64,000 bases of DNA, from contig OZ024756.1 of the NCBI GenBank assembly GCA_964016885.1, forward strand, positions 39,060,001 through 39,124,000. Reading direction: 5' to 3'. Below, piece by piece: positions 3,545 through 3,815 of the stretch. Within the stretch, counting starts at the first letter, position 1. Each line of letters opens with the position of its first letter. Source of the stretch: Eledone cirrhosa. Its lineage: Eukaryota. The notes below the pieces were generated by a model that ran no database searches, had not been told where the DNA came from, and saw only the letters and a program-made list of their open reading frames with translations. The translations under genes and the position numbers were made by a program.

Positions 3545-3815
3545 TTTGGATTCTATCGATCGATTGGTTATTGATTAGGCGATACCCGCTGATGAAGCCG
3601 CATAAGCCGATTGTGCATTGTTGCATAATATAGTGCGGCAGAAACTCGAGTCCGGGAACCTTATAGGCACCCGTTTTACGTGTGTTGTGTTGAGGCAAAT
3701 AACTATGTGTATACTCTGGTAATGTATCTTACATTGCCCATTGAGTGCACTGAGATACAACCGGTACTGGCATTGATAAATTTGCTGGGTCCGTCAACCC
3801 TTATTATTATTATTA
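3545..3815 (+). mobile_element. HHR-bearing element, family H, inserted in (TA)n, (TTA)n tail
   Basis: Unique ~270 bp bounded by (TA)n on both sides, contains a canonical HHR. Confidence 0.65.
3585..3656 (+). ncRNA. Canonical minimal type I hammerhead ribozyme (family H)
   Basis: CCCG-CTGATGA-A-GCCGCA..TGCGGC-A-GAAAC-TCGA-GTC^CGGG; all core bases intact; GUC cleavage after 3652. Confidence 0.88.

Follow-up and report, generated by a model that had tools for sequence, protein, structure and literature searches.

A solitary 5'-truncated hammerhead copy in a TA microsatellite, likely left by a Penelope-like element

The hammerhead ribozymes of metazoan Penelope-like elements (PLEs) combine a helix II of 7-8 bp, a helix I of 4-5 bp and an extra base after A9 with a small palindromic helix III, and they occur mostly as single motifs in truncated elements (PMC4209133). 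The minimal motif of S. mansoni was inactive as a monomer and weakly active as a dimer in the same report, and the dimer mechanism of the hammerhead has been described elsewhere (PMC6155905). In one of the 56 core entries of Fig. S3 of PMC4209133, by file order that of Cotesia (an unverified assignment), the core reads AGAAA, which would equal an A·A. For the Hydra clade of PLEs, File S2 of PMC8557442 shows the base of stem II mismatched in 15 of 26 rows (14 U·U, 1 U·C) and stem III reading actc-N-gagt in 5 of the 26, and one Chara element has a C·A in the former place; File S1 gives (TA)n as the target of 26 of the 27 Hydra families, the remaining entry being blank; the same source lists a Hydra element of Octopus bimaculoides and presents Naiads as elements without canonical hammerheads. 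The pair at 10.1-11.1 is the most conserved one apart from 15.1-16.1, and U·U supports more activity there than other mismatches (PMC3088659, section 8). Truncated and inverted pLTR architecture has also been described (PMC3846280). Retrozymes are defined by tandem units (PMC7229834) and have been tied to pLTRs in a study in which 1 of 9 Xenopus dimers was cut (bioRxiv 10.64898/2026.07.22.740005). Our literature search on 10.1/11.1 variants retrieved no direct test of A·A; conducted largely outside the subscription journals, it returned no publication testing a cephalopod hammerhead, and the word hammerhead is absent from PMC13282606.

In the window, that is, the whole stretch of 64,000 nt of Eledone cirrhosa DNA that was analysed, positions 3585-3656 of the + strand read as a type I hammerhead with a full core, a GUC site and an 8-nt palindrome. 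The reading that we favour, and consider likely, is that of a solitary, 5'-truncated hammerhead copy in a TA microsatellite, coming from a Hydra-type Penelope-like 3' end or from a non-coding parasite thereof, whose ribozyme would cut slowly, and only as a dimer, after C3652. The Penelope/Hydra origin, the dimer dependence and the low rate of the family ribozyme are suggested by analogy with the systems above.

Anatomy of the motif and its insertion

A sequence-only reading of this DNA had described the motif as a textbook-intact hammerhead with every core nucleotide, GC-rich stems I and II and a palindromic stem III, whose RNA, if transcribed on the + strand, could be cut after 3652. The core is indeed complete (C3-U4-G5-A6-N7-G8-A9, G12-A13-A14, A15.1-U16.1 and H17), the four pairs of stem I are all G-C, the seven of the proximal stem II comprise five G-C, one A-U and one G-U, and the palindrome is perfect (Table 1). 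C17 is the cut position in the established hammerhead numbering, which puts the predicted cleavage where it had been placed. The motif has the three helices and the open-ended stem I of its type, stem III being predicted to form only between two copies, and its helix lengths, extra base after A9 and palindromic helix III are those of the metazoan PLE type. What does not hold is the word textbook. A3596 opposes A3640, either as an A·A mismatch at 10.1/11.1 or as one extra base on either side of a G-C pair, and the 10.1-11.1 pair that adjoins A9 and G12 in a canonical hammerhead is missing. In addition, about 38 nt are absent, and the Rfam model RF00163 (Hammerhead_1) aligns over its full length (1-45 of 45) to 3583-3658 but scores 17.2 bits against a gathering cut-off of 34 (E 0.3). 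No match reached gathering level in the Rfam scan of the window, the 18 other matches near the locus being all sub-cut-off and mostly tracking TA runs.

Table 1. Coordinates of the hammerhead, of its predicted partners and competitors, and of the insertion
Feature	Position	Strand	Basis
(TA)n microsatellite, (TA)15, left flank of insertion	3513-3543	.	
5'-truncated copy of many-copy non-coding repeat end	3544-3800	+	relatives
9-nt complement (3 G-U) of 3605-3613; marginal candidate pseudoknot	3561-3569	+	
Competitor segment pairing with 3587-3590, hairpin -3.7 kcal/mol (predicted)	3578-3581	+	
Stem I, 5' strand, CCCG	3585-3588	+	sequence
Core C3-A9, CUGAUGA	3589-3595	+	sequence
Unpaired A facing A3640, at 10.1 or as an extra base behind A9	3596	+	
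Stem II domain: 7-bp proximal helix, internal loop, distal hairpin	3597-3639	+	folding
Proximal stem II strands, GCCGCAU / GUGCGGC	3597-3603 / 3633-3639	+	sequence
A in the family state, at 11.1 or as an extra base ahead of G12	3640	+	relatives
Core G12-A13-A14-A15.1, GAAA	3641-3644	+	sequence
Perfect 8-nt palindrome ACTCGAGT	3644-3651	+	sequence
C17 of GUC triplet; predicted cut on 3' side, between 3652 and 3653	3652	+	sequence
Stem I, 3' strand, CGGG	3653-3656	+	sequence
Decoy CCCG seizing the stem I 3' strand, hairpin 3653-3674, -7.9 kcal/mol (predicted)	3671-3674	+	
Bulged ACUC-hairpin-UU-GAGU stem, starting 61 nt past the cut site	3713-3746	+	z -3.4
(TTA)n then (TA)48, right flank of insertion	3801-3909	.	

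The window is AT-rich animal DNA (GC 0.27-0.41) with 191 tandem-repeat rows, mostly microsatellites. Relatives of the copy at 3544-3800 extend upstream of 3548-3550 (29 contigs, 113 reads), and 19 contigs pass into TTA/(TA)n at 3798; the copy is therefore a 5'-truncated 3' end, likely that of a Penelope-like pLTR or of a non-autonomous derivative, and it has no second copy within the window. Insertion in (TA)n with a hammerhead near the 3' end is a trait of the Hydra clade that is common to other clades as well, and 11 of the 12 hammerhead-like motifs of the window are followed by a (TA)n run within 250 nt, against a background of 0.24 within 230 nt. The locus, being a single copy, has neither direct nor inverted pLTR repeats, as expected for a truncated insert, and it carries no tandem hammerhead monomers of 150-450 nt, the arrangement characteristic of non-LTR retrozymes. 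None of the 6 joints listed is a go-back joint, in a comparison whose stretch the monomer may exceed. A reordered hammerhead of the Naiad type was rejected for the element, CUGAUGA, GAAA and UUGAUAA occurring once each on the + strand and none of them on the - strand. The Pfam scan, covering 142 of the 238 complex reading frames of the window, returned no RT or GIY-YIG match; apart from noise it yielded a weak C2H2 zinc-finger match below Pfam cut-offs in a 99-aa frame at 24535-24831 (-), probably a retroelement remnant.

The bulged stem behind the hammerhead was matched in 3 of 5000 segment shuffles. Stems of the form ACUC-hairpin-NN-GAGU number 8 in the window against 1.63 per shuffle, and four of these sit 104-124 nt behind a hammerhead while the other four do not. 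Besides the one at 3713-3746, such stems stand at 27530, 34297, 57156 and 10510 (+) and at 13189 (-); three of them follow, at a distance of 104-106 nt, hammerheads that belong to another family than that of 3585-3656 and are unrelated to it. Beyond the right flank of the insertion, 87-nt inverted repeats (3909-3993 and 4282-4368, 95% alike) bracket a repeat at 3992-4254 that recurs at 56540, 11514, 16218, 36195 and 2369 and looks tRNA-derived.

Elsewhere in the window, six more type I hammerheads (C3 at 27426+, 33969-, 34191+, 37001-, 56106- and 57052+) have an AUA site and an AU-rich stem III and share, by eye, a C·C mismatch at pair 4 of stem II; the one at 37001- has a direct G10.1-C11.1 pair and a core more canonical than that of 3585-3656. 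Those at 27148-, 48330+ and 60278- are minimal hammerheads of one family, with an ACGU palindrome, a GUU site and an extra A after A9, which is the classic minimal PLE form. Two palindromic insertions, 33696-34507 (33969-/34191+) and 30244-30558 (30304-/30498+), carry two outward-facing hammerhead-like motifs each and show an inverted pLTR arrangement. There is also a direct repeat of about 520 nt at 39240-40287, in two copies 89% alike, inside which the hammerhead descriptor found no motif.

Predicted folding and the state of the family

All fold figures given here are predictions without tertiary contacts. In the monomer, stem II has a pair probability of 0.84-1.0 and stem III one of 0.01 or less, the palindrome at 3644-3651 being too short for a monomer stem III. 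Its self-duplex is predicted at -10.7 kcal/mol, and for two copies of 3580-3660 the double hammerhead is the lowest fold, at -61.1 against -49.0 kcal/mol for two monomers. This prediction agrees with the earlier idea of dimeric self-cleavage through a short palindromic stem III, which is published for the class (PMC4209133). Stem I, with a predicted probability of 0.7-0.9 in the 72-mer alone, drops to 0.3 in 3575-3665 and to 0.00-0.01 once the context is longer. When linked dimers of 10 of the 12 motifs were compared as single chains with a 12-N linker (the pair 30304/30498 was left out), 3585-3656 ranked first of the ten with flanks of 4-10 nt, with an ensemble share of 0.26-0.32 against 0.033 or less for the others. 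With flanks of 25 nt it ranked seventh of ten, its double hammerhead lying 12.2 kcal/mol above the best fold, and with flanks of 50 nt fifth of ten, at 5.8 kcal/mol above it. Its designation as the best candidate for activity is borne out for short flanks and lost in the longer ones.

Flanks longer than 10 nt cost the double hammerhead its place as the predicted best fold, a loss that is ascribed to the competing hairpins 3578-3581/3587-3590 and 3653-3656/3671-3674. In a 122-nt slice close to the 3560-3680 construct that had been proposed for in vitro transcription, the double hammerhead lies 12 kcal/mol over the best fold. The 3560-3680 RNA is thus predicted to misfold and would be uninformative if negative; such an outcome refutes nothing, and the trimmed dimer is the fair test. 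Activity of the trimmed dimer is plausible because the short-flank folding of this motif beats that of the other nine, and the chances of detectable cutting at 10 mM Mg2+ are about even. The ribozyme could form co-transcriptionally, ahead of the synthesis of the downstream decoy, and the hairpin 3653-3674 might act as a switch by which the cut product refolds. This hairpin is perhaps retained in a second subfamily, to judge by eye from a loose-end consensus before 3675.

Relatives with 80% or more identity were taken from the public sequencing runs X1, X4 (another organism) and X13, in which the stretch 3544-3800 is represented by 1596 contig records (not equal to copy numbers), 7 records and 1097 reads, respectively. 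These are three of the four runs that were compared out of 15 listed; the fourth, X10, gave 0 reads from about 1 in 100 of its letters. Among the 16 of 1623 pieces listed, all eight contigs that bridge 3632/3633 (6 from X1, 2 from X4) carry 37-39 extra nt; 298 X13 reads depart from the window sequence at 3632 with identical letters, and the - strand depth drops there from 198 to 0. These contigs, departures and depth drop indicate that the window copy has lost about 38 nt at the 3632/3633 junction, a deletion that is either rare or private to it. The stem II domain measures about 81 nt in the family against 43 nt in this copy, and the absent piece contains, by eye, the partner strand of 3613-3621.

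As for the foot of stem II, A3596 shows no change at 5% or more in the relatives, the A-to-other changes that reach at least 5% (6 in X1, 5 in X4, 11 in X13) are all assigned to positions other than A3640, and no gap at 3640 is among those tabulated. To judge by these counts, A·A at 10.1/11.1 is the family state in the three runs with coverage. In X1 no core base is altered at 5% of depth or more and 16 other places are, with thin coverage of 3634-3651: the summed X1 depth, which exceeds 100000 elsewhere, falls to about 3600 at 3638, and the X13 reads over this segment share a single start. The second subfamily carries GUA, a valid triplet, at the cut site. The copy is young, since three positions in 257 nt (3555, 3749 and 3782) deviate from the family majority, each from at least 98% of X1 depth. 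A metagenome pattern scan gave 21 loci, none of them related, with no match longer than 32 nt and no downstream core in the flanks shown. The fold, the cut site and the dimer proposal of the sequence-only reading stand, then, with four things that it had overlooked: the A·A where stem II meets the core, the loss of 38 nt that the family carries, the absence of a partner copy from the window, and the flanks at 3578-3581 and 3671-3674 that are predicted to seize stem I.

Weighing of the explanations

A strict descriptor (stem I of at least 4, palindromic stem III, stem II of at least 7) matched once in the 64-kb window and not at all in 200 block-wise dinucleotide shuffles, a looser one (stem II of at least 3) matched 9 times against 0.025 per shuffle, and dropping the palindrome rule gave 12 hammerhead-like motifs. 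The motif at 3585-3656 is real, yet common in the window (one of 10-12 per 64 kb). A chance match, in favour of which the Rfam score under the cut-off could be adduced, is refuted by the shuffles and by the many relatives that retain the motif, the window holding eight more palindromic ones besides, and this explanation carries practically no weight. It is improbable, too, that the family ribozyme is an elaborated and efficient hammerhead, in which the A·A would be tolerated or functional and a pseudoknot of 3605-3613 with 3561-3569 would dock stems I and II, giving fast dimers or even monomers. This proposal draws on an A·A that none of the three covered runs shows changed at the 5% level, on a 9-nt complementarity of -9.4 kcal/mol in which G3606A still pairs with U3568, and on the docking of about 40% of hammerheads by pseudoknots (PMC3088659, section 7). 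The complementarity is marginal, however, being reached in 3-7% of shuffles (154 of 5000 give a run of at least 9, and 358 of 5000 an equal energy); pairs are lost with A3605C (17% of X1 depth) and with U3611C, and the relatives, whose variants are unphased, showed no change on both sides. Furthermore, A·A should cut more slowly, given that U·U is the best tolerated mismatch (PMC3088659), and a 2-nt loop is unable to close stem III in the monomer. We lend equally little credence to a distinct variant with a fixed A·A, an 81-nt stem II domain, a 9-bp pseudoknot and a decoy refolding the cut 5' end, which would act as an efficient switchable dimer; if this were true, the window copy would be a natural 38-nt deletion mutant probing the role of the extra domain.

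The ribozyme might instead be catalytically dead throughout the family, the A·A being a fixed lesion and the repeat spreading via its tail signals alone. The mismatch does fall on the pair that is most conserved apart from 15.1-16.1 (PMC3088659), the flanks are predicted to capture stem I, and 8 of 9 Xenopus dimers remained uncut (bioRxiv 10.64898/2026.07.22.740005). We nevertheless hold this to be unlikely: the core stays unaltered at 5% or more of X1 depth against 16 other variable places (with 3634-3651 thinly covered), the second subfamily retains its valid GUA, and mismatches at the foot of stem II recur across Hydra elements (PMC8557442). Less likely still, to the point of being very doubtful, is an exapted regulatory ribozyme, a copy inside a host transcript that would cut that transcript. 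Its core and proximal stems are preserved and the palindrome could pair in trans between two transcripts; but this is a young copy with 3 private substitutions, both truncated and internally deleted, the 142 of 238 frames scanned revealed no host exon close by, 9 T-runs set it apart from the upstream tRNA-SINE, and the native flanks disfavour stem I (predicted probability 0.00-0.01).

In the preferred reading of a slow, dimer-dependent PLE hammerhead, the 8-nt palindromes of two ribozymes, carried by a tandem or multimeric transcript of the element, would join to make one common stem III. Each of the two cores would cleave at its GUC, and the cuts would delimit the RNA unit for reverse transcription by the element. 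The RT and endonuclease of the element, or ones borrowed from a coding relative, would then copy this RNA into (TA)n sites, and the window copy would be a truncated product of such copying that later lost 38 nt. It is probably a silent leftover, because the upstream part is gone, stem II is short of 38 nt and no partner lies in the window, and meaningful cutting in vivo at the 3652 locus is improbable at best. A single copy matters little, since hammerheads at the ends of Penelope-like elements are published and dense in the genome. The family offers an inexpensive means of finding out whether cutting is hindered or aided by an A·A in this place and by a stem II of such size, which bears on why metazoan Penelope hammerheads are slow in vitro.

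Comparison with known hammerhead systems

Animal non-LTR retrozymes (PMC7229834; Li, Clavereau and Pollet 2026) resemble the family in being non-coding and low in GC and in carrying a type I hammerhead, and their dimer-enhanced cutting in amphibians and PLE-derived ends can be likened to it. Unlike them, the locus at 3544-3800 has no tandem copy, and therefore no unit-length RNA would be releasable from it.

Among published PLE hammerheads, those of the Hydra clade are the nearest match. With this clade, as presented by Craig et al. 2021 (PMC8557442), the copy shares a type I hammerhead near the 3' end, the (TA)n target, ACUC/GAGU as found there in stem III and an unpaired base on each side at the foot of stem II. 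The consensus tail of Hydra-2_Amil contains, by eye, a bulged CUC/GAG hairpin; such a bulged stem is clear in one of the five Hydra tails displayed, two of which end too early. In contrast, none of the 26 rows of File S2 has an A·A, the mismatches there being U·U or U·C; the palindrome is a perfect 8-nt one without a central base here; and Hydra stems II have 3-7 bp and short loops, against the domain of about 81 nt in this family. Moreover, (TA)n targeting also occurs in Naiad and other clades and is not Hydra-specific. Eleven short motifs of the copy were compared with the supplement of the same paper and none was found in a related stretch; one of them, an 8-mer, occurs at 7 places, of which the 2 examined are both unrelated. 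Membership in the Hydra clade, whose elements carry a frame for an RT with a C-terminal GIY-YIG upstream of the hammerhead, is not established, the copy having shown neither a coding region nor a match to any published consensus.

The likeness to the PLE hammerheads of Cervera and de la Pena 2014 (PMC4209133) lies in the 7-bp helix II, the 4-bp helix I, the extra base after A9, the G-C first pair, the palindrome, the solitary genomic copies and the dimer requirement, the last being a prediction here. The differences are the extra A before G12, which is rare in the entries of that report (1 of 56, as AGAAA), and a stem II that is much longer here. By analogy with these ribozymes, the motif may well work as a PLE hammerhead of the dimer type.
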